Positions 1 to 28,455 of a stretch of DNA of 64,000 nt are shown piece by piece. The position numbers and the translations under genes were made by a program. Numbering within the stretch: position 1 is the stretch's first letter; the number at the start of each line of letters is the position of its first letter. Source of the DNA: a virus (lineage: Duplodnaviria; Heunggongvirae; Uroviricota; Caudoviricetes); the IMG/VR virus record IMGVR_UViG_2609459856_000007, positions 28,436 to 92,435 of that record. One strand, given 5' to 3'. The notes below the pieces were generated by a model that ran no database searches, was not told the origin of the DNA, and saw only the letters and a list, made by a program, of their open reading frames with translations.

Positions 1-239
1 GTCATACCCGAGTTTTCGTAAATCTTCATGACCTTTTCACGAGCCTTTGCAGTAGTCTCTAATGACGTAGCTATCTTATCAAAATCACCCATCGTCATAT
101 TGGACAGCACCAGATTGATGATGTCTGCCTTTGACAGTTTTATGCTGCGTTCACGCAGTCGATTCTGAAAGGTCTCTAGTTTATCGTTTGCTTTTTCGGT
201 TAACTGAACCTGGCAGTGTATAGCGCGTTTCTCGCTCAT
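1..239 (-). CDS. hypothetical protein, partial (start in window, runs off left edge); start 2 nt after helicase stop
   Basis: Reverse-strand ATG at 237-239; translation MSEKRAIHCQVQLTEKANDKLETF... open to position 1. Confidence 0.4.
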   Translation of the reverse strand, partial: MSEKRAIHCQVQLTEKANDKLETFQNRLRERSIKLSKADIINLVLSNMTMGDFDKIATSLETTAKAREKVMKIYENSGM

Positions 240-241
240 GC

Positions 242-1801
242 TTACTCTCTATTTAAAACAGTGAAATCGAATGTGCTGCCAACCGGCAAGACCCCCTCGG
301 CAAACCCAGGCGTCGTGTCGATAATGTGTTTCCGCTCATATGAATGCGACATGAGGTATTTGTTGCTCACGTCGATGAAGTCGGTAATAAAGCACACGTT
401 AGCCTGATTCTTTTTGGCTCGAAGACCGCGACCCACACGTTGACGCATCTCCACTTCGGCTTTGCCGCCACCACCCAGAATCACCGCGCCTACGCTTGGA
501 ACGTCGACACCAACATCCAGAATGGTTGAACCAATGAGAACATCTATCTTGCCTGCCGCCAGACTATTAAGTTTTGCTTGTCGGGTAGTCTGGTTTGATT
601 CTCCGTAGATGAAATCGACCTTGAGGCCACTCTCTTTCATCATTTCCATCAAGATCTGACCATGACGCTTCAGACGAACCAATGTCATACAGTTCAGACC
701 GTGACTCTTGTACATTAGCGCTTCACGCACAATAGCTTCGTTGCGGCCCAGATTATAGACGATGCCTAACTGATAGGCTTTCTGGTAAGCCGTGCTCATT
801 CCAACCCGAAAATTCAGGTGTTTTGAAGCAAGTTCGGCTCTAATCCGCGCCTCATCTGGAGTGTACGCGATTTTATGATATAAAAAGTATGGTTTCGCTA
901 AAATACCTCTGTCGATCAAATATTTCTCCGTTACTTTTATCTCGATGCGACCCGCAACGGCCATGAGACGCATATTTGCTTCAGTCGAGTCCTTCATGAA
1001 CGGCGTTGCTGTCAGCGCCAGACGGTAGTCGGCATTGATGCACAACCGGGCGATGTCGTAGAAGTTAGAACCAGATGATTCGTGTGCCTCTTCCAGAATC
1101 AGCAGAGAAACGCTGGACAGGAAGCGTTTAACCAGTTCCCGGCGCTTCAGGTGGTACTGTTTTTTCTCCGGTGATGCGTCGCGCGGTGGCTCTTCGAGAA
1201 AACTGGCCAGGGTCTGCACCGTGGCAACGTTGATATGGCGCGAGACCTGGAACTCACCCGATCCAATCACCCCAACTCTCTGACCTTTCAGCCACGGCTC
1301 GCCATTCTCCGCGCGGTAGTCGATGGATTTCTGGAAGTTCTCTGCCATCTGGAACATCAGAACCGATCGCGTGGTTAAAAACAGCGTCATACGACCAATG
1401 CGAGCAGCAGCCTTACACGCTACGTTCGATTTACCGCCACCCGTCGCAATCTGGGCAATCATCATCCCTTCGCGCACCAGTGTTTCCACTGTCTGATCCT
1501 GATACGCGTAGTCCGGGTTATACGGGAATGGGTTAACCACCGGATTCGGCTTACCCAGCGCGGGAGCTTTTTCCTTGCGAACATGCACGCATTTGATGCC
1601 AGCTTTCAGAAGATTGGTCGCAACTGGCTTCGCAAACCCAGCCGGGAACGCGTTTTTACTCCAGTTGAACATCGTGCTGGTCCCTTTCCAGTCACCAGCC
1701 TCCACTTCATAGCTCAACATCTCCTGAACAAGCCGTTTCACGTTGTCATCAGCGCCAGAAATCAGCGCATTGACTGCATTTGATACAATCCGAACAGTCA
1801 T
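242..1801 (-). CDS. superfamily 2 DEAD/DEAH-box DNA helicase
   Basis: Motif I GGGKS, motif II LEEAH, motif III TATP, motif VI QRVGRGLR; RBS GGAAAGAGG upstream of ATG. Confidence 0.85.
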   Translation of the reverse strand: MTVRIVSNAVNALISGADDNVKRLVQEMLSYEVEAGDWKGTSTMFNWSKNAFPAGFAKPVATNLLKAGIKCVHVRKEKAPALGKPNPVVNPFPYNPDYAYQDQTVETLVREGMMIAQIATGGGKSNVACKAAARIGRMTLFLTTRSVLMFQMAENFQKSIDYRAENGEPWLKGQRVGVIGSGEFQVSRHINVATVQTLASFLEEPPRDASPEKKQYHLKRRELVKRFLSSVSLLILEEAHESSGSNFYDIARLCINADYRLALTATPFMKDSTEANMRLMAVAGRIEIKVTEKYLIDRGILAKPYFLYHKIAYTPDEARIRAELASKHLNFRVGMSTAYQKAYQLGIVYNLGRNEAIVREALMYKSHGLNCMTLVRLKRHGQILMEMMKESGLKVDFIYGESNQTTRQAKLNSLAAGKIDVLIGSTILDVGVDVPSVGAVILGGGGKAEVEMRQRVGRGLRAKKNQANVCFITDFIDVSNKYLMSHSYERKHIIDTTPGFAEGVLPVGSTFDFTVLNRE

Positions 1802-1846
1802 AAACCTCTTTCCTTCGTGCCTTTTGTATGGTAATTGGCTATTATG

Positions 1847-1864
1847 TTAAGTAAGTGCTTACAC
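1847..1864. promoter_or_regulatory. palindromic TAAGTA-n-TACTTA motif in divergent helicase/ParB intergenic region
   Basis: ttaagtaagtgcttacac; family recurs at 11 sites. Confidence 0.35.
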
Positions 1865-1865
1865 A

Positions 1866-2564
1866 ATGTATTGTATCAAAAATATGGATGTGAAAATTAC
1901 GATTCTACAGGTGGAAGTCGCGAACCTGCGTCCGAACCCCTGGAATACCAACTCCGTTGGGGCGCAAAACTTCGAAAAACTGAAAGGTTCCATCGAAAAG
2001 TTGGGCTTTTTTAAGCCAATTCTGGCGCGAGAGCTGGACGGCGGCATTTTTGAGATTCTCGGTGGCGAACATCGCTGGCGTGCCGCGATGGAGCAGGGCA
2101 TTTCAACGGTTCCCGTCATCTCCGTGGGCAAAATTAACGACCTGGTGGCCAAACAGATGTCCCTCGTCGACAACGAGCGCTACGGCGAAGACGATCAGGT
2201 CGCTTTGCAGCGCTTAATCGAAGAAATCCAGTCTGAAATCGACTACCGGTTGTCCGATATCGCCCCGTATGACGACGAAATGGCGGCAACACTCGCCAAA
2301 GCGTCCGTTATCGATCTTGAAGCGCTGGAAGCGCTCTCCCGTGGCGATGACGAGCCGGTCGATGAGGACAAACGCGAGAAAACCGAGCGAGTCGGCGCTG
2401 AACACCAGACGATGCGCTTCAAGGTGACGTTTGATGCGTCAGATCGGGTCGCCGACACCATCAAAACCATCATCAAAGAGCAGGGAATCAATACCGGTAA
2501 CGAAATGGAGAACGCCGGGGAAGCCCTGGTGTGGCTGGTCGACTACTACAAGGAGCGTATGTAA
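1866..2564 (+). CDS. ParB/Srx-like nuclease domain protein
   Basis: ILGGEHRWRAA motif typical of ParB N-terminal domain; start could be 1884. Confidence 0.7.
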   Translation: MYCIKNMDVKITILQVEVANLRPNPWNTNSVGAQNFEKLKGSIEKLGFFKPILARELDGGIFEILGGEHRWRAAMEQGISTVPVISVGKINDLVAKQMSLVDNERYGEDDQVALQRLIEEIQSEIDYRLSDIAPYDDEMAATLAKASVIDLEALEALSRGDDEPVDEDKREKTERVGAEHQTMRFKVTFDASDRVADTIKTIIKEQGINTGNEMENAGEALVWLVDYYKERM

Positions 2565-3232
2565 TGACCAAAAACTTTGAAATCGTCTATCGAAACCCGG
2601 CAGAACTCATCCCGTATGAGATGAACGCCAAAAAACATGACGAACAGCAGATCCGCGATCTGGCGGCCGCCATCAAAAAGCGCGGTTTTGACCAGCCGAT
2701 CACGGTCGACAAGCACGACGTCATCATTACTGGCCACGGTCGTCGCGAGGCGGCTCTTCTGGCTGGTCTGGAGCGTGTGCCGGTCATTGTTCGCGACGAT
2801 CTGAGCGAAGAAGAAGTGAAGGCTAAGCGTCTGGAAGACAACCGCCTGGCCAGTATTGACTACGACGCCATCAAATTGCAGCAGGAACTGGAATCCCTGG
2901 TGCTGGGCGACGTCGAGGTCTTCGGTTTTGAAGAGCGCGAGCTGAACGTGCTTGTCGGCAGCATGACCGAAGAGATGGAAACCGGCTCTCTGGTGCTCGA
3001 TCTGGGCGAAGAGACGGAGCGCCAGAAGGAAGAGCACACCGAGATCAGTCGCGAAGTGGCCTCTGAAGAAGTCCGCGTCATCGACGTATTGGGCTTTAAA
3101 ACGCTCCCTGCTGGCTCTGCCATTGTGGTTGGGGATTTGCTTGCCCACATGGAAGAAATCACGGGAGAGAGCGGGGTAGACGCTTTCGTGGCGTATGCGG
3201 AGAAAGTTTCTTCTGGTGAGCTGGCCGCATGA
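2564..3232 (+). CDS. ParB-like nuclease domain protein (second copy)
   Basis: ITGHGRREAA motif; ATG overlaps upstream stop (TAATG); ORF track start 2531 is an upstream GTG. Confidence 0.7.
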   Translation: MTKNFEIVYRNPAELIPYEMNAKKHDEQQIRDLAAAIKKRGFDQPITVDKHDVIITGHGRREAALLAGLERVPVIVRDDLSEEEVKAKRLEDNRLASIDYDAIKLQQELESLVLGDVEVFGFEERELNVLVGSMTEEMETGSLVLDLGEETERQKEEHTEISREVASEEVRVIDVLGFKTLPAGSAIVVGDLLAHMEEITGESGVDAFVAYAEKVSSGELAA

Positions 3233-3867
3233 GCAAATACACCATCAACGTATCGTTTCAGACCCGCGTGAACAAAACCACGCGCACGCTGGAGATTGCC
3301 GAATCGTTCGGTCTTGGCCTGGACGAAAAAGAGTGGACGCTTTACGACAATCTGGAGCTGGAAGTGAAGCAGGGCGATGTGGTGTACATCACCGGCCAAT
3401 CCGGTTCCGGTAAATCCGTTGTGCTGCGCGAGCTGCAACGCCAGATGAAGGATGAAGGGCTTTCTGTAGCCTCCATCGATGACTTTGCCTTCGACAATGA
3501 GGTTAACGTCATTGACCAGCTGGGCAAAACCACCAGCGAAGCGCTGGGGCTGCTGTCTATGGCCGGATTGAATGACGCCTATCTCTTTGTGCGTAAGCCA
3601 TCCGAGATGTCTGACGGCCAGAAATACCGTCTCAAGATCGCCAAGCTGATCGAGTCCGGCGCGAAAGTCTGGGCTGCCGACGAATTTGGCGCTGTTCTCG
3701 ACCGTGTAACCGCCCAGGTTGTGGCGTCGAACCTCCAGCGTGCCGCCCGTAAGGTTGGTGCGACGGTAATGGTGGCGACGACCCACGAAGACCTGAAGAA
3801 CGCGCTGCGCCCGGATATGCAGATCACCAAGCACTACAAAGAACGCGTGAAGGTGGAATATGCCTGA
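3229..3867 (+). CDS. minimal ABC-type ATPase domain protein
   Basis: Walker A GQSGSGKS, signature-like SDGQKYR, Walker B VWAADEF, H-loop TTHE; ATGA overlap with upstream gene. Confidence 0.65.
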   Translation: MSKYTINVSFQTRVNKTTRTLEIAESFGLGLDEKEWTLYDNLELEVKQGDVVYITGQSGSGKSVVLRELQRQMKDEGLSVASIDDFAFDNEVNVIDQLGKTTSEALGLLSMAGLNDAYLFVRKPSEMSDGQKYRLKIAKLIESGAKVWAADEFGAVLDRVTAQVVASNLQRAARKVGATVMVATTHEDLKNALRPDMQITKHYKERVKVEYA

Positions 3868-4114
3868 TTTGAAGATCGTAGAGCTGAAGCCATCGAAAGA
3901 GGCTGACAACAACAACGTTGAAGTCATCCGCCTGCTGGAAGAAGCACTCCAGTACGCCAGAGAAGGCAAAAGCCAGAGCCTGGCACTGCTGATGATCAAC
4001 AACGACGGCAGTGTGCTGGATTGCTGGCATAACGGTGGGCGTCCATACGTCATGGTTGGGGCGATGGAATCGCTTCGCCTGGACTTCATCAATGCCAATA
4101 TCGAGCGTAGGTGA
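3860..4114 (+). CDS. hypothetical protein
   Basis: 84-aa ORF translationally coupled in operon. Confidence 0.4.
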   Translation: MPDLKIVELKPSKEADNNNVEVIRLLEEALQYAREGKSQSLALLMINNDGSVLDCWHNGGRPYVMVGAMESLRLDFINANIERR

Positions 4115-4119
4115 TCGAC

Positions 4120-5037
4120 ATGACAGGCATCATCATCAAACGCTACCGCCCGGAAGAGTTCCCGCGTCATCTGGACTTTCTGGAGCGTATGACCGTTACC
4201 AAAGGCACGGTTGAAGACTGGCACGCGCTGAAGTCGCTGCACTACAAGACGGATGGTAAGCCGTTTGCGCCAACGTATTATCGCTGCGAACTGGACGACC
4301 GGCTGGTGGGCGTCGTGGTTATGGCTTACCCGAAACTGCTGCTGGCGCCTCGCCATCGCATGTTTCCTAAGCTGAAGCCAACCACCAATACCACCGTGGC
4401 CAACCAGTATTGGGGGCGGTACGTGAACAACAACTTTGCGGTGATCAGCCGTTCCGTTGTGGACACTCAGTACCGCGGTGTCGGCGTCTCCTATCGAATG
4501 ATTAACCTGGTTAGCAGGATGCACGACCGGCCAATCATCGAGATCCAGTCGTCGATGAGCAAATACAACCCGTTCGCCATGAAAGCAGGGTTCCAGTTCA
4601 TCCGTCCGGAGCGTCCGAAGAGCTATGAGAGTGCGTTGCGTGTCTTCCAGCGTCATTTCCGTTCCGACCCTGGCGACAACGAAGCGATCGTCAAAGAGCT
4701 GTTTGCCATGAGTGAGTCTCGCCGTCGTCGTGCGCTGCGTGATCTGGTCGCTGACTACCACAAGAACAGTTCCCTGGCCAAAGCCGGGCGTAATCGTGGC
4801 ACGACGATTCAGGACATTGCCGACAGCCTGGTGGACGAGGCCAGCATCGTGAAGCTGCTCAAGGACATTCACAACCTGAGCTTCACGTCTCCGCTGTATG
4901 GCGTGTACCGAAACCCGGACTTTGGTCGTCAGCTGCCGGACACGCTGCCACTGCTGGCATTCGACAAACAGCCTTTGAATAACCCTCTTGAAATTGCATT
5001 ATCCGAAGAAGCCCCCGCCGATCGCAGACCGTGTTAA
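4120..5037 (+). CDS. hypothetical protein, possible GNAT-like fold
   Basis: AGGTGA RBS before ATG 4120; YRGVGVSYRMINLV resembles acetyl-CoA binding motif A (weak). Confidence 0.4.
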   Translation: MTGIIIKRYRPEEFPRHLDFLERMTVTKGTVEDWHALKSLHYKTDGKPFAPTYYRCELDDRLVGVVVMAYPKLLLAPRHRMFPKLKPTTNTTVANQYWGRYVNNNFAVISRSVVDTQYRGVGVSYRMINLVSRMHDRPIIEIQSSMSKYNPFAMKAGFQFIRPERPKSYESALRVFQRHFRSDPGDNEAIVKELFAMSESRRRRALRDLVADYHKNSSLAKAGRNRGTTIQDIADSLVDEASIVKLLKDIHNLSFTSPLYGVYRNPDFGRQLPDTLPLLAFDKQPLNNPLEIALSEEAPADRRPC

Positions 5038-5258
5038 CGCAGTGAACCGCATGTTGATGAGTGCCTCGGGCGAAACCCGGTTGTACATCGATCCGAAGTG
5101 CAAACACCTCATCGACTCGCTGGAGAAGGTGATCTACAAGCCAGGCTCACGCGATATGGATAAGACTGGCGGCATCGAACACAGTGCGGATGCGTTAGGT
5201 TATCCGGTTCATCGTAGGTATCCGGTGAAAAATCGTGTTATTCTTGGTGGATCTAGAT

Positions 5259-5274
5259 AGGTAAGTACTTACCT
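5259..5274. promoter_or_regulatory. perfect 16-bp palindrome AGGTAAGTACTTACCT upstream of portal-like gene
   Basis: Member of recurring TAAGTA-n-TACTTA motif family. Confidence 0.4.
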
Positions 5275-5293
5275 AATAGGAAAAGAAAATCAA

Positions 5294-6868
5294 ATGGAAT
5301 TGACTGACAAGCAAATCAAAGACCTTGTGGCACGACGCCACCCAGAATATGAGAAGAAAAAAGAACATTGGGACTTCCTCGCCAGCACCTACGCTGGCGG
5401 GCGTGCCTGGTTCAACGACAATATCTTCCGTTACTTCAAAGAGGGCGATCAGGAGTTCAAAGAGCGCCTGGAACGCGCTTATCGCTTCAACCATACGCGC
5501 GAAGTGGTAAACCTCATCAACAAATACCTCTTCAAAGAGGTCATTCACCGCAACACTGATGAAGCACCGGAGCAGATCCGCAATTTCTGGAAGCGAGCCA
5601 CGCGCCAGAACGCCTCCATCGATGCGTTTATGGCGGCTATCGATCTGCAATCATCCATTTATGGCCGTATCTGGGTTGTCGTGGATAGCACGATGAACGT
5701 CGATGTTGAGTCTGTTGCAGACGAGAAGAAAAATGATGCGCGTGCCTACGCTTACTGGATTTCGCCGCAGCAGCTGCTTGATGTTGCCTGGGATGAAGAC
5801 GGCAATATGTTGTGGGCGCTGATTGTTGAAATCGCGCGCGACGACGAAGATCCGTTCACTTCAACCGGGCAGGAATACCAGCGTTACCGTCTGTGGACGC
5901 AAAACGAGTGGTATCTGTTCCGTGAAGAAGTGAAGAAGGGTTCCGGAAATAGCGGTCGCCGTCAGGCCAAAGTCGTTCTGGAGGATAGCGGCCAGCATAA
6001 TCTGGGCGTGGTGCCGGTGTTCCCGGTGGATTGCATTGGTGAAAGCGAGTCTCCGTATTTTAGCCCGTCGTTGATTGACGATATTGCCTATCTTGATCGC
6101 GCCGTGGCCAACTACCTGTCGAACCTTGACGCGATTATTCAGGATCAGACATTCAGCCAGTTAGCGATTCCGGTTCAGTCCCTGCTGCCGGGCGATGAAA
6201 ACCACACCAAAGTGCTCGAAATGGGGACAAAACGTGTCTTCACCTTCGATTCTGAGAGCGGTAATCAGCCATTCTATCTGTCTCCAGACCCGAAACAGGC
6301 TCAGATGATCATCACCACGATTAAGACGGTGATTAATGAGATCTACCATTCCGTTGGTGTGGCTGGTGAGCGAACCAAGCAGGATAACGCGCAGGGTATC
6401 GACAACTCTTCGGGGGCAGCGAAGATGTACGACTTCCAACGTATTAACAGTCTGTTGGTGACAAAAGCAGAGCGCCTCGAAAGGGCAGAACGCCAAATGA
6501 TGGAGTTGGCTGCGAAATGGATGGGCATCGAATTGGATGAAGACCACTCTCTGATCGCTTACCCGGAGAGTTTCGATATTCGTGGTCTGACTGACGAATT
6601 TGCCGTCGCTGAGAAATTGTCGCTGTTACAGGCGCCTGATTCTGTACGTCGTCATCAGATGGAAATGCTCATAGAAAAGATCTTCCCGAATATTTCCGAA
6701 GCGATGCAAAAGGAATTTAAAAAAGATCTCTTGAAATTTCCTCTAAAAAATGCTCCTGGCGCCCTTGAAAATAAGTCAGTACTTACTTATGATCGAGATA
6801 CAGTCCAAGAAAGCGGACAAGATCAACCCCGAGGGAATGGGGACTCATCTACTCAAGAGACCGAGTGA
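5294..6868 (+). CDS. putative portal protein
   Basis: 524 aa, no NTPase motif, immediately upstream of scaffold-like and capsid-like genes; assignment by size and position only. Confidence 0.5.
   Translation: MELTDKQIKDLVARRHPEYEKKKEHWDFLASTYAGGRAWFNDNIFRYFKEGDQEFKERLERAYRFNHTREVVNLINKYLFKEVIHRNTDEAPEQIRNFWKRATRQNASIDAFMAAIDLQSSIYGRIWVVVDSTMNVDVESVADEKKNDARAYAYWISPQQLLDVAWDEDGNMLWALIVEIARDDEDPFTSTGQEYQRYRLWTQNEWYLFREEVKKGSGNSGRRQAKVVLEDSGQHNLGVVPVFPVDCIGESESPYFSPSLIDDIAYLDRAVANYLSNLDAIIQDQTFSQLAIPVQSLLPGDENHTKVLEMGTKRVFTFDSESGNQPFYLSPDPKQAQMIITTIKTVINEIYHSVGVAGERTKQDNAQGIDNSSGAAKMYDFQRINSLLVTKAERLERAERQMMELAAKWMGIELDEDHSLIAYPESFDIRGLTDEFAVAEKLSLLQAPDSVRRHQMEMLIEKIFPNISEAMQKEFKKDLLKFPLKNAPGALENKSVLTYDRDTVQESGQDQPRGNGDSSTQETE
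6773..6790. promoter_or_regulatory. TAAGTA-n-TACTTA motif inside 3' end of portal-like gene, upstream of scaffold gene
   Basis: taagtcagtacttactta. Confidence 0.3.
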
Positions 6869-6890
6869 TAAGTAACGAAAAGGTATTTCT

Positions 6891-7787
6891 ATGAATCTGT
6901 GGCAAATGCTTATGGCCCGTCGTGGCCTGATGGATGTAGCCGAAGCGCATGAGCGCGGCGGCGCTGGTGGCGGTGCTCCTGCTGGAGACAATGAGCAGAG
7001 CATTCAAGACCCAGGCAAACAGGGCGAGCAAAAAGAGCAACCGAAGGGTGACGACGATGAGTATGCCGGTATGACTCAGGAAGAGTTGCTGGCAGAACTG
7101 CGTAAGTCTAAGAAAGCCGGTGCTGATCTGTTGAAAGAGAACATGAAGCGCAAGGAGAAAGAGCGCACATTGGCCGATCAGCTGGCTCAGTACGGTGATA
7201 TTGACCCGACGCGTGCTCGTCAGCTTCTCGAAGCTGAACAAGCCGCAGAAACCGCACGTCGGGAGGCGGAGCAGGCTGAACTGGAACGTCGTGGTGAGTT
7301 CGATGCTGTGAAAAAGCAGATGATCGAAGCACACCAGACTGAACTGGCACAGCGCGACGAACGCTACTCCGCTCTGGAGAGCGAGAACGCCGCACTGAAG
7401 GCTCAACTGGTCGAAATGACTGTTGGTGTTTCCTTCAGCAGTTCTGCTTTCCTGCGTGACAAAGTTCTGATGACTCCGGCTAAGGCACGCGTTATCTACG
7501 GCTCTCATTTCGAAGTGGGTGAAGACGGTAGTGTTGTGGGCTTTGATAAGCCAGCCGGTCAGAAAGAACGTGCAGTTCTGGTTGACGGTGAAGGCAAGCC
7601 GTTACCGTTCGAATCCGCGATTGAGCGCATTCTGCGTGCAGATCCGGAAGCTGACGCACTGTTGCGTAGCGAAGCCAAGCAGGGTGCTGGTTCCAATAGC
7701 AAACCGACCCACAAAGTAAGCCAGCCGAAGAGCAAGTCGACTATGGATAAGTTGACCTCCGGTCTGGGAAAAATCGGACTCAAGTAA
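6891..7787 (+). CDS. putative scaffolding protein
   Basis: Acidic N-terminus, long Ala/Glu/Gln-rich predicted coiled coil, located between portal-like and capsid-like genes. Confidence 0.5.
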   Translation: MNLWQMLMARRGLMDVAEAHERGGAGGGAPAGDNEQSIQDPGKQGEQKEQPKGDDDEYAGMTQEELLAELRKSKKAGADLLKENMKRKEKERTLADQLAQYGDIDPTRARQLLEAEQAAETARREAEQAELERRGEFDAVKKQMIEAHQTELAQRDERYSALESENAALKAQLVEMTVGVSFSSSAFLRDKVLMTPAKARVIYGSHFEVGEDGSVVGFDKPAGQKERAVLVDGEGKPLPFESAIERILRADPEADALLRSEAKQGAGSNSKPTHKVSQPKSKSTMDKLTSGLGKIGLK

Positions 7788-7813
7788 CATCTTAAATCAT
7801 AGGGAAATGAAAG

Positions 7814-8689
7814 ATGCCATTACTGCGTGATGAAGCTGAAAAGCTGTCTAATAACGAACTTGAGCAGGGTGTGATCGAGACCATCATCGATCGCGATGAC
7901 CTGTTCGCTATTCTGCCTTTCATGAAGATTAATTCTAAGGCATACCTTTACAACCGCGAAGCTACCCTGAGCGAAGCTACCTTCATTGATGTGAACGACA
8001 CCATCACTGAAGGCGCAGCAACCTTCAGCGAACACGTTGCGAAGCTACGTATCCTGGCAGGCGACGTAGACGTCGACAAATTCCTGGCGACCACTATGTC
8101 CGACACCAACAACCAGCTGGCAATCCAGGTTCGTCAGAAGGTGAAAGGTCTGGCTCGCGCATTCCGCCGCAATCTGATTCTGGGCGACTCCAGCACCAAC
8201 ACCAAAGCGTTCGACGGTATTCCGAAACTGATGCACGACGATCAGAAGATCGACATCGAAGGCGCTTCCATGACCTTCTCCATGTTCGACGAACTGGTCG
8301 ACGCGGTGAAAGATCTGGGTGCGGACTGCATCATGATGCGCTCCGAGCATCTGCGTGCTTATCGCGCTCTGCTGCGTACCGTTAATATCGGCCCGTCCGA
8401 AATTATGATGGAAAACTTCGGTCGACCGATGTTGTGCCACAACGGTGTACCTTTCATCGTGAACGACTTCATCCCGACTGACGCGGGCAAAGCAAGCATC
8501 TACTGTCTGCACCTGTCCGAAGAGAACGGTGTGACCGGTCTGTATGGCGGTGAAAACGCTGGTATCGTTGTTGAGAACATCGGTACTGTTCAGAACAAAG
8601 ACGCAACCCGTACCCGCGTTAAGTGGTACTGCTCTCTGGCGAACAAGCACGACAAAGCTATCGCCGCGCTGACCAATGTAAAAATTTGA
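7814..8689 (+). CDS. putative major capsid protein
   Basis: 291 aa, position after scaffold, followed by strong terminator; no motif-level confirmation. Confidence 0.5.
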   Translation: MPLLRDEAEKLSNNELEQGVIETIIDRDDLFAILPFMKINSKAYLYNREATLSEATFIDVNDTITEGAATFSEHVAKLRILAGDVDVDKFLATTMSDTNNQLAIQVRQKVKGLARAFRRNLILGDSSTNTKAFDGIPKLMHDDQKIDIEGASMTFSMFDELVDAVKDLGADCIMMRSEHLRAYRALLRTVNIGPSEIMMENFGRPMLCHNGVPFIVNDFIPTDAGKASIYCLHLSEENGVTGLYGGENAGIVVENIGTVQNKDATRTRVKWYCSLANKHDKAIAALTNVKI

Positions 8690-8702
8690 TCAGAATGATA
8701 GG

Positions 8703-8720
8703 TAAGTAGTTATCTACTTA
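8703..8720. promoter_or_regulatory. TAAGTA-n-TACTTA motif
   Basis: taagtagttatctactta. Confidence 0.35.
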
Positions 8721-8723
8721 ATA

Positions 8724-8751
8724 TGGGTGGGCTATACGCCCACCTTTTTTG
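8724..8751 (+). terminator. rho-independent terminator after capsid gene
   Basis: GGGTGGGC-tatac-GCCCACC stem followed by TTTTTT. Confidence 0.65.
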
Positions 8752-8763
8752 TAGGAGCGATAA

Positions 8764-9090
8764 ATGCCAGAACAAAAGATGAAAATCATGGAGGAGACGT
8801 TTGCGGATTTCACAGGGCATATGTGCCGTGCCGGATTCACCAACTCCGTCTCCAACGAGCCTCTGAGCGAGCGCCAGCAGAACCATCTTGCGGCTTGCTT
8901 CCGGACAGTTCCGTTCACGCAGTCTGTCAGCGTGGAGTCTGTTGCTCTGACTCCTGATTCTGTCTCTGTTGAGAAGGGGAAGTCAGTCAAATTGCGAGTT
9001 GATGTGCAACCGTCAAACGCAACCAATCAAAAAGTCACCTGGACTTCTCAAAATAGCGACAAAGCGACCGTGGATCAGAACGGTATCTGA
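8764..9090 (+). CDS. bacterial Ig-like (Big_2) domain protein
   Basis: RBS GGAG; C-terminal SVSVEKGKSVKLRVDVQPSNATNQKVTWTSQNSDKATVDQNG matches Big_2 pattern. Confidence 0.65.
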   Translation: MPEQKMKIMEETFADFTGHMCRAGFTNSVSNEPLSERQQNHLAACFRTVPFTQSVSVESVALTPDSVSVEKGKSVKLRVDVQPSNATNQKVTWTSQNSDKATVDQNGI

Positions 9091-10252
9091 AGAAAAAAAC
9101 GCCCGAGCAACTGCCGACGAATCTTTGGCACAACAGATAACTACATTGAAGAGTCAAACGGGCAAGGATATTAAGGCGGCTGTAGCTGAAGAGACGAAAG
9201 CCAGAACTGATGCTGATTCCGCTTTGGCTTCTAATATCACTAATCTACAGGCTCAAACGAGCAAAGATATTCATGCTGCGATTACATCTGAAGCGACTGC
9301 GCGTACAAGCGCCGACAATGCACTAAGTGGGAGAGTTGACACCTTAAAAGCATCAGTAGATGGAAATACAGCAACAATTCAACAACAGGCCACAGCTATT
9401 GCTGATACGAACAAGAAGGTATCAACAGCCTGGACGCTGAAAATGGAAACCTCCACCAGCGGAGGCCAAAAATATGTTGCCGGCATAGCGTTGGGCATCG
9501 ACACAACAGGTCTATCGCAGTTTTTGGTGCAGGCAGATCGCTTTGGTTTGGTGAACTCCGTTAATGGGAAAATTACAACGCCATTCGTTATTGATGCCGG
9601 TGTGGCTTATATGAACGGAGCTTATATCAAGAACGGCACCATTGATAACGCCAAAATAGGCAACTTCATTCAGTCCAACGATTACTCAAGCGGGATGACG
9701 GGGTGGCATATTAATAAAAACGGGAACTCAGAGTTTAACAATGTAACTGTTAGAGGCACCGTTTACGCAACGAATGGCAAATTCACAGGAGAAATACAGG
9801 CTACCAGCGGAACATTCAGAGGCACGGTACAAGCAGATCACTTCGTAGGCGATGTCGCTAACATGTATGTGGGCAATGACTTCTCAGTTCGTTACAACGG
9901 CACATATACAATGACATATACAGACTCTTCTTCGTCTGCATTGCCCAAAAATATTTATGTGGCAATAAATGTATATACGGGGGGCGTCGGCCCTGTTGCA
10001 GCCCAATTTACCTGCAATGGAGTGACGAAGACCGCAACCACTGGTAAGGGGACAACATACAGAGACCCTGATCTTAATTCAACAAGATCTACAGGCGTCG
10101 GTGGCACTCTTTACGCTGCTTTTAACAATGTTACCTCAAGAACTGTTGCTGTTACGGTAAAAGTGACCAGTTCATCACAGACACATATTTATTCGCCCGT
10201 GATGCTAATCAGCCGTGGAAGTGGCGCATTTTCCATGTCGGGCATCAGTTAA
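9086..10252 (+). CDS. fibrous virion protein ORF with no start codon of its own (+1 frame relative to 8764..9090); fusion by frameshift or disrupted gene
   Basis: Coiled-coil-like TxADxALA repeats then beta-rich C-terminal domain; no ATG/GTG/TTG with RBS in frame near 9086; A7 run at 9093-9099. Confidence 0.45.
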   Translation, partial: SEEKNARATADESLAQQITTLKSQTGKDIKAAVAEETKARTDADSALASNITNLQAQTSKDIHAAITSEATARTSADNALSGRVDTLKASVDGNTATIQQQATAIADTNKKVSTAWTLKMETSTSGGQKYVAGIALGIDTTGLSQFLVQADRFGLVNSVNGKITTPFVIDAGVAYMNGAYIKNGTIDNAKIGNFIQSNDYSSGMTGWHINKNGNSEFNNVTVRGTVYATNGKFTGEIQATSGTFRGTVQADHFVGDVANMYVGNDFSVRYNGTYTMTYTDSSSSALPKNIYVAINVYTGGVGPVAAQFTCNGVTKTATTGKGTTYRDPDLNSTRSTGVGGTLYAAFNNVTSRTVAVTVKVTSSSQTHIYSPVMLISRGSGAFSMSGIS

Positions 10253-28423: not shown

Positions 28424-28455
28424 AATTATCAACCTGCGTGTTTTGATTTTATATG

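Follow-up and report, generated by a model that had tools for sequence, protein, structure and literature searches.

A module of four genes, encoding two ParB-like proteins (ParB1 and ParB2), an ABC-type ATPase and a GNAT-fold protein, opens the packaging and head operon of SSU5-like phages. We analyzed this ParB1-ParB2-ABC-GNAT module in a 64,000-nucleotide (nt) stretch of viral DNA (positions 28,436–92,435 of the IMG/VR record IMGVR_UViG_2609459856_000007; the whole stretch is referred to as the window). The reading that we favor, to which we assign a probability of roughly 0.4, is that the module would carry out an ATP-driven, ParB-assisted acylation of phage DNA before packaging. In the proposed mechanism, the ParB-fold proteins would engage the phage DNA as nucleotide-gated DNA-binding partners, the ABC domain would dimerize on ATP and supply mechanical work, for instance for access to the base or the duplex, and the GNAT domain would move an acyl or aminoacyl group onto a DNA base. 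Expression within the late operon would then mark the progeny DNA before it is packaged and protect it from host nucleases. A first-pass annotation of this DNA had proposed a role in nucleic-acid processing or anti-defense, and the same reading is favored here on the strength of gene fusions and gene neighbors in other viruses.

The coupled genes and their fused relatives

The module is contained in a set of five translationally coupled genes on the plus strand (1866–5037), which correspond to SSU5_125–129 of Salmonella phage SSU5:

1866–2564, plus strand: ParB1 (SSU5_125), 232 amino acids (aa); ParB_N, E value (E) 9e-14; phrog_723, E 3e-86
2564–3232, plus strand: ParB2 (SSU5_126), 222 aa from the ATG; ParB_N, E 9e-9; phrog_930, E 3e-115
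3229–3867, plus strand: stand-alone ABC-type ATPase (SSU5_127), 212 aa, one nucleotide-binding domain; ABC_tran, 50.3 bits
3860–4114, plus strand: 84-aa protein (SSU5_128; phrog_796)
4120–5037, plus strand: GNAT-fold protein (SSU5_129), 305 aa from position 4120 or 308 aa from the GTG at 4111; 296 aa in relatives

Successive start and stop codons overlap by 1, 4 and 8 nt or, in one case, are separated by a 5-nt gap; the earlier description of the genes as tightly coupled therefore stands for these five. The range given at the time, 1866–5260, also spans a sixth open reading frame (ORF, 4988–5260), and this part of the claim fell, the ORF being the stump of a terminase and not a gene. The tandem ParB pair next to a 212-aa ABC ATPase, described in the same annotation, was found at the coordinates listed above on the plus strand, with ParB_N and ABC_tran scores above the cut-offs. 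For the five genes, identity is 97% to phage SSU5 and 99% to Escherichia coli plasmids, and the set is thus not a product of chance. In PHROGs they belong to families 723, 930, 293, 796 and 886. Promoter and terminator scans gave a signal no higher than in shuffled sequence. An antisense open frame of 670 aa runs across the ParB2, ABC, 84-aa and GNAT genes (2860–4872, minus strand) and probably results from the composition of the genes on the sense strand.

When the 305-aa protein was compared with Pfam, nothing scored above the gathering cut-off; Acetyltransf_10 reached 13.6 bits against the required 23.6 (E 0.07), and the same family was matched, weakly, by only six of 36 homologues. An alignment of these 36 sequences displayed a GNAT motif A (YRGxGxSY) and a motif B (N-x-F-A-x-K-A-G-F). 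Motif A, of the general form R/Q-x-x-G-x-G/A, binds the pyrophosphate of acyl-coenzyme A (acyl-CoA); in the window it reads YRGVGVSY, and its R119 and G122 are invariant in the 36 homologues. The AlphaFold2 model of the protein is confident (pLDDT 87.5) and has the GNAT fold, with a core formed by residues ~20–165 and 259–277 and a helical insertion of ~90 residues between them. The GNAT-like gene of the first-pass annotation is thereby borne out by motifs and model, and on the same grounds the 305-aa protein is a predicted GNAT-fold acyltransferase with conserved acyl-CoA-type motifs.

The 212-aa protein carries a Walker A motif (GQSGSGKS), an ABC signature (SDGQ), a Walker B motif (VWAADEF) and an H-loop (TTHE), and its ABC_tran score compares with a cut-off of 25 bits. 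It is the orthologue of the N-terminal half of the fused ABC-GNAT proteins described below; a homologue search with the ABC protein alone returned near-identical sequences only and was uninformative. Two other identities were rejected. Three PHROGs families, 293 and 886 of the window genes and 11143, are labeled "ABC transporter", as are GenBank entries. These names are misleading because no permease or other membrane-protein gene is present in the operon or in its syntenic relatives. As for a substitute terminase, the protein matched none of the terminase models in Pfam and PHROGs, and a canonical large terminase subunit (TerL) is encoded directly downstream in relatives, the window having lost its copy. 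The module and the terminase (small subunit TerS and TerL) have in common their neighborhood and the possession of an ATPase, but the ABC fold differs from the terminase ATPase fold, and relatives encode a separate TerL and a putative TerS. The previous judgment that this ATPase is not a large terminase was therefore correct.

How these proteins belong together is indicated by their fused relatives. A search of 1.84 billion representative proteins with a GNAT-family profile recovered 914 relatives, many of which are 450–500 aa long with the GNAT region C-terminal and an ABC domain, identified by Pfam, at the N-terminus. In one such fusion, P0304, residues 2–214 are 49% identical to the ABC protein of the window over all of its 212 aa (E 3e-67), and residues 213–473 are colinear with the GNAT protein at 26% identity (E 1e-14). 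All of 30 ABC-GNAT fusions compared share the residues of Walker A, the signature, Walker B and GNAT motif A (R320 and G323), and at least 90% have the H-loop His. The ABC and GNAT genes of the window are the split form of what is called "ABC-type ATPase with predicted acetyltransferase domain" by the Joint Genome Institute (JGI), which we take to be the COG2401 type; the architecture is the same, split in the window, and the family name is a domain-architecture label only.

Longer fusions were also found. With a hidden Markov model of ParB built from the collected loci, and with the ABC and GNAT parts confirmed by Pfam, we identified ParB-ABC-GNAT triple fusions (P0345, P0353, P0338 and P0317) whose domain order equals the gene order in the window. 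Since one polypeptide of other viruses carries all three parts in this order, it is well supported that ParB2, ABC and GNAT act as one functional unit. In a 1260-aa protein (P0323; L088, 10001–13783), ABC and GNAT follow the exonuclease and polymerase domains of a complete family B DNA polymerase (PolB). The collection indexes this fusion in 35 blocks (24 contigs read), from both European Nucleotide Archive and JGI samples, and its gene sits among Prim-Pol, RecA, flap-endonuclease and SbcC-like genes that resemble a phage replication module. In a further ABC-GNAT homologue of 847 aa (P0286), a LAGLIDADG intein is inserted in the ABC domain right after the Walker B region. The PolB fusion, the fusion to or adjacency of ParB and the ABC intein point to DNA metabolism.

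These associations bear on a rival reading in which the GNAT protein would acetylate a host or phage protein or a signaling molecule, for anti-defense or host takeover, with the ABC and ParB proteins as regulators. Such a role would agree with the GNAT fold matches, most of which, among the matches listed, act on proteins or small molecules, and with passengers of anti-defense type near the unit: a DUF2829 gene between the ABC and GNAT genes of a Rhizobium phage, a weakly Tad2-like gene in one SSU5-like relative (L085) and an "acr candidate" in a Porphyromonas phage. The links to PolB, ParB and the intein argue for DNA metabolism instead, and an accessory anti-defense gene would not usually be so tightly conserved among the first genes of the late operon in different classes of Proteobacteria. 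We consider this rival possible, although unlikely.

The conserved gene order in SSU5-like relatives consists of a helicase gene on the minus strand followed by ParB1, ParB2, ABC, a slot of variable content, GNAT, a small gene, a DNA-binding protein gene, TerL, portal, DUF6651 and capsid genes. A prophage in the chromosome of Dyella telluris, a Hyphomonas contig and a metagenomic contig keep this order, with GNAT proteins 43–48% identical to that of the window, and the four core genes follow the same order in Rhizobium-phage genomes. Free phages of Rhizobium, Pseudomonas, Stenotrophomonas and Xanthomonas carry the same module, which is thus a phage trait and not a plasmid-maintenance trait.

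Small accessory genes seem to gather in the slot that separates ABC from GNAT. In the window it holds the 84-aa gene, which had been counted as part of the operon unit; the protein is instead a variable passenger and no part of the core. Its homologues are confined to Enterobacterales (56 clusters), and the slot is empty in Dyella. A homologue of 54% identity (L182, 6001–6255) lies in Klebsiella prophages between capsid/decoration and head-tail connector genes, with no ABC or GNAT gene near it, a context that hints at a virion-associated or moron role unrelated to ABC-GNAT. The AlphaFold2 model of the 84-aa protein reached a pLDDT of 67 and gave no significant fold match. A role as core subunit or carrier protein was accordingly rejected on the limited distribution, the absence from Dyella, the solitary occurrence in Klebsiella head-tail modules and the low-confidence model. 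In Rhizobium phage RHph_N1_10 the slot is filled by the gene annotated as DUF2829 (L185, 5633–5935). The Tad2-like gene (L085, 4163–4456; weak match to PF11195) lies ~3 kb upstream of the module.

Both ParB proteins exceed the cut-off of 26.3 bits for ParB_N (PF02195), with 51.7 bits for ParB1 and 35.7 bits for ParB2. They share 31% identity and represent two separately conserved paralogue lines. The ParB1 line is specific to the SSU5-like supergroup, and its orthologues in L083–L085 are 32–38% identical. ParB2-type proteins are the single ParB partner of ABC-GNAT in Streptococcus and Pasteurella phages; ParB2 shares 47% identity with the ParB of Streptococcus prophage 315.4 and 36% with that of Pasteurella phage Pmp13. 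In reference to the canonical box II that binds cytidine triphosphate (GERRxRAA, with the catalytic Glu), the sequence is GGEHRWRAA in ParB1, whose orthologues have E, E, Q or A at the Glu position, and GHGRREAA in ParB2. The ParB2-type domain also matches families annotated as DNA methyltransferase, namely phrog_498 (E 1.6e-32) and PADLOC MTase_II (E 6.6e-18). PADLOC gave no defense-system match for the module, only generic P-loop/ABC hits and the ParB hits to methyltransferase families. The role envisaged for the ParB proteins would resemble that of the ParB domains in these methyltransferase-annotated families and of the ParB activators of thymine dioxygenases.

Were the module a plasmid partition system, in which the two ParB proteins bind the centromere and the ABC ATPase is the motor, the ParB N-terminal domains and the plasmid nature of the element would be accounted for; the best PDB matches of both ParB proteins are Spo0J, ParB and Noc. 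The adjacent ATPase is nevertheless of the ABC type (ABC_tran E 4.9e-13 vs. CbiA/ParA E 0.0019), and the ParA-like gene of SSU5 is located, with a small partner gene, ~30 kb away. The full-length ParB model TIGR00180 (NCBIfam) gave 39.3 and 46.9 bits against a cut-off of 58.45, no canonical helix-turn-helix or ParA-binding motif was detected, and the module is kept in the integrated Dyella prophage and in free phages and is fused to an enzyme, GNAT, elsewhere. A type I ParABS locus, with which the module shares the ParB N-terminal domain, is effectively refuted by these data and we regard it as extremely improbable. The first-pass annotation had likewise seen no standard partition system, citing the lack of a ParA partner, and its reading was to give way if the genes proved orthologous to characterized small terminase or partition proteins. 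No such orthology was found; synteny is strongly conserved, and the orthologues are themselves uncharacterized.

Genomic contexts and competing readings

A tblastn search with a fused ABC-GNAT homologue returned 91 phage records from many host phyla, and ABC-GNAT genes occur in phages of Actinobacteria, Firmicutes, Bacteroidetes, Spirochaetes and Proteobacteria as well as in metagenomic viral contigs. The unit lies beside a terminase in at least seven lineages. The layout ParB, ABC-GNAT, a few small genes, TerL and portal was observed in Streptococcus prophages 315.4 and Javan523, Gordonia phage BiggityBass, Leptospira phage LE4, Pasteurella phage Pmp13 and a contig with a triple fusion (L186); in the two Streptococcus prophages the GNAT part is split off as an 89-aa ORF (phrog_7693/11143). 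Among 80 IMG/VR loci with a fused ABC-GNAT gene, 77 have an ORF that ends at the start of that gene, and 45 of the 77 ORFs belong to one family whose representative is Terminase_6N (TerL). These 45 loci may come from a single viral lineage and would therefore amount to one observation. The idea that IMG/VR contigs ending exactly at the ABC-GNAT gene represent genome ends was dropped, since ten of them end on the stop codon, as is likely after provirus trimming, and the remainder fit short contigs.

Such a neighborhood would suit a packaging accessory, with ParB proteins that bind near pac or cos and an ABC-GNAT part that aids the start or the regulation of TerS/TerL action, for instance through a modification made to a packaging protein or to the DNA where it is cut. 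The unit is positioned directly upstream of putative TerS and TerL genes in SSU5-like phages and in the phages and the triple-fusion contig named above, and the TerL-family ORF ending at the ABC-GNAT start in 45 of the 77 environmental loci adds to this. Late DNA-modification genes, too, may adjoin terminase genes, however, and no terminase lies near the PolB fusion or the replication-module contexts. Also against packaging, the gene follows tail genes in the Mu-like Burkholderia phage phiE255 and in a Porphyromonas phage, and intact SSU5-like relatives have their own, separate DNA-binding protein (the putative TerS) upstream of TerL. Nor would the formyltransferase, aspartate decarboxylase, CoA-transferase and amidoligase genes described next make sense for packaging. 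Taken together, a packaging accessory appears to us still less probable than the acylation of proteins or small molecules.

Two further kinds of context were observed. In the first, the ABC-GNAT gene is found among replication genes: in one locus with genes for YorF- and YorH-family proteins, a DnaB helicase, a DHH phosphoesterase and gyrase, and in Nonlabens phage P12024S likewise in the replication module. In the second, enzymes of amine or acyl chemistry are encoded next to the unit. A formyltransferase domain (Formyl_trans_N) is encoded directly after ABC-GNAT in phiE255 (gp30), in BiggityBass (gp3) and in the Porphyromonas phage. BiggityBass gene 3 (L093, 1823–2473) is annotated as "tRNA-methyltransferase" and matches the formyltransferase N-terminal domain (PF00551) with an E of 7e-10. 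In phiE255 the pair follows the tail-fiber genes, which is where Mu carries mom. In Gordonia phage Jace, genes 87–88 (L098, 6092–7203) encode an aspartate decarboxylase (PanD; E 2e-33) and a family III CoA-transferase directly after ParB and ABC-GNAT, and could plausibly supply beta-alanyl-CoA to the GNAT protein. An Amidoligase_2 gene (E 1e-59) directly follows ABC-GNAT in L111, and an ASCH gene does so in Streptococcus phages. A core that stays constant while the tailoring enzymes around it vary is what a modification pathway usually looks like. SSU5-like phages have no adjacent tailoring enzyme, and we therefore infer that their mark would be a simple acyl group such as acetyl.

A different substrate, RNA or tRNA, is proposed by a reading modeled on TmcA/NAT10, NTPase-coupled GNAT enzymes that make N4-acetylcytidine (ac4C) in RNA; the module would modify RNA, for instance to escape anticodon nucleases. 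The pairing of an ATPase with a GNAT is the logic of TmcA/NAT10, in which an NTP-hydrolyzing domain joined to a GNAT acts on a nucleic-acid base. In Streptococcus phages (prophage 315.4) a gene for an ASCH protein adjoins the ABC-GNAT unit, and several ABC-GNAT phages carry tRNA genes. ASCH proteins hydrolyze N4-acylcytosine derivatives and erase ac4C from tRNA (PMC6972931; bioRxiv 10.64898/2026.02.27.708502). The ATPase of the module, however, is of a different class, ABC-type and not a RecD-like helicase; neither a DUF1726 nor a tRNA-binding domain was detected in the module; and the ParB and PolB fusions associate it with DNA. Moreover, in the precedent of Mom, tRNA is the donor and not the target (PMC13219725). 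RNA acetylation is thus, in our view, improbable.

Neighboring genes and the state of the source element

Further features of the window around the module are as follows:

242–1801, minus strand: DEAD/DEAH (UvsW-like) helicase; Pfam DEAD, ResIII and Helicase_C; phrog_16
4998–5005: deletion junction with the 4-bp microhomology ATTA
5006–5260, plus strand: 3' remnant of the large terminase gene, its last 87 codons, with part of the nuclease domain; phrog_10250
5294–8689, plus strand: portal, DUF6651 scaffold-like protein and major capsid protein; phrog_145, phrog_206 and phrog_212

The helicase gene is a divergent neighbor that is kept beside the module throughout the SSU5-like supergroup (in the same position in L083, L084, L085 and L185) and lies outside the unit in other lineages. 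The portal, DUF6651 and capsid genes continue the late operon that holds the module, and their order is kept in relatives. Positions 1–9000 match the right end of Salmonella phage SSU5 at 97% identity and E. coli phage-plasmids of ~108 kb at ~99%.

Comparison with plasmid p.CT29-P1 by blastn revealed that 2,123 bp are missing from the window, positions 1–5005 and 4998–9085 being otherwise colinear with it. The deletion removed an 88-aa gene (phrog_900), the gene of a 213-aa DNA-binding protein (phrog_867), which overlaps the TerL start in p.CT29-P1, and codons 1 to ~331 of the 418-aa TerL. By its position, the 213-aa protein is the probable small terminase. The 90-aa ORF at 4988–5260 matches phrog_10250, "terminase large subunit", at profile positions 143–225 of 228 (E 6e-21), and the remnant equals the C-terminus of the 418-aa TerL of p.CT29-P1; this ORF is a terminase stump and no functional gene. 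Of an intact TerL, with its terminase ATPase and RNase H-like nuclease domains, the window thus holds only the last 87 codons. A query spanning the junction was found in one piece in none of 456 PLSDB plasmids and none of 240 E. coli genomes that match the region, and among 12 matching phage records no match crosses it. Intact relatives encode the putative small terminase and the 418-aa large terminase directly after the module, so the terminase-less layout noted at first is owed to a deletion specific to this copy.

The GNAT gene runs through the deletion junction and therefore has an altered C-terminal tail, in which the last 2 residues are replaced by 12; the module in the window is otherwise intact. 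In some E. coli copies (P0027, 301 aa; P0031, 257 aa), internal deletions have fused the C-terminal two thirds of GNAT to a ParB N-terminus or to a portion of the ABC domain; the module therefore decays in some plasmids.

A second deletion relative to p.CT29-P1, of ~14.8 kb and with the microhomology TA, is located at 9084/9085. It took the connector, tail tube, tape measure and minor tail genes and left a chimeric ORF (8969–10252) in which an Ig-like head-decoration gene region is joined to the 3' part of a tail-tip fiber gene; this junction is absent from PLSDB. Between 11900 and 31991 the match to p.CT29-P1 is patchy, with gaps at ~11.9–13.9, 16.7–17.8, 18.4–20.2 and 24.9–26.8 kb that reflect differences in cargo, and the segment of p.CT29-P1 at 8.2–15.6 kb, which aligns between 18.4 and 20.2 kb of the window, holds a fimbrial operon and toxin-antitoxin genes. 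The region 32000–56900 is not SSU5-like at all; it is 97–99% identical to E. coli P1-like phage-plasmids of ~97–100 kb, which carry antirepressor, DUF968, integrase and terminase genes. Since an SSU5-like and a P1-like part occur in one window, the source would either combine two phage-plasmid types, as a hybrid or cointegrate, or be a mis-assembly; it is a decayed mosaic phage-plasmid, or possibly a mis-assembled one. Crippled and without a packaging enzyme, the source element cannot package DNA, and the window itself represents a dead phage.

Proposed DNA acylation in relation to known modification systems

The proposed acylation of phage DNA has precedents for its individual parts. Mom has a GNAT fold and places glycine, taken from Gly-tRNA, on DNA adenine (PMC13219725). 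The likeness to Mom (PDB 8bv8; PMC13219725, PMC7261163) lies in the fold, with no detectable sequence relationship, and Mom acts without ABC ATPase and ParB partners, whereas the GNAT protein of the module is coupled to both. For the ParB proteins, one subclass of phage thymine dioxygenases requires a cognate ParB-like protein (PMC13229309), and fusions of ParB-fold domains are documented, frequently to methyltransferases in phages and, in bacteria, to an acetyltransferase (PMC12704722). In those systems, too, a ParB-fold protein stands beside, or is fused to, a class of DNA-acting enzyme, often with terminase genes near; terminases co-occur in 19% of the contigs mined for the dioxygenases (PMC13229309). 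The module differs from them in that the partner would be an ABC ATPase with a GNAT, and in having two ParB paralogues.

Several observations weigh against the acylation of DNA. Box II is divergent in both ParB paralogues, and no ParB gene was found within 6 kb in any of the 80 fused ABC-GNAT loci of one large environmental IMG/VR group. The recurrent linkage to terminase genes is the strongest link of all and fits a packaging role equally well. A profile of the 36 GNAT homologues compared with PDB chains, including that of Mom (8bv8), gave no match at E ≤ 10 except one spurious hit, so that no sequence link to Mom or to another solved structure is available, and the donor and acceptor of a GNAT protein cannot be read from its fold (PMC13219725). 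Finally, no report of a modified base in SSU5-like DNA was found in the searchable literature.

That literature also yielded no paper on a ParB-ABC-GNAT unit or its function and nothing specific on COG2401, and neither the ParB-fold survey nor the papers on Mom and the dioxygenases mention the unit. Databases already list the genes themselves, as hypothetical proteins or "ABC transporters". In its widest form, which we put forward more tentatively than acylation by the module as such, the proposal is that ParB-ABC-GNAT may be a widespread and unrecognized phage DNA-hypermodification system, in which a ParB loader and the ABC ATPase would let the GNAT protein acylate or aminoacylate a base just before packaging. 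In some lineages the added group might then be formylated, derived from beta-alanine or extended by an amidoligase, and SSU5-like phage-plasmids would be packaging DNA with an undescribed base modification.

SSU5-like phage-plasmids, which also spread resistance genes (PMC9600943), are often found in E. coli, Klebsiella, Salmonella and Enterobacter, including clinical Enterobacteriaceae; among complete E. coli genomes, ~4–5% carry the region studied here. As a conserved and uncharacterized enzyme unit placed first in their late operon, the module could determine which hosts the phage DNA survives in. If the proposal is true, the module would represent a new class of enzyme, an NTPase-coupled GNAT, with a new chemistry for phage DNA hypermodification, and would provide a second case of ParB-fold proteins serving as cofactors of DNA-modifying enzymes.

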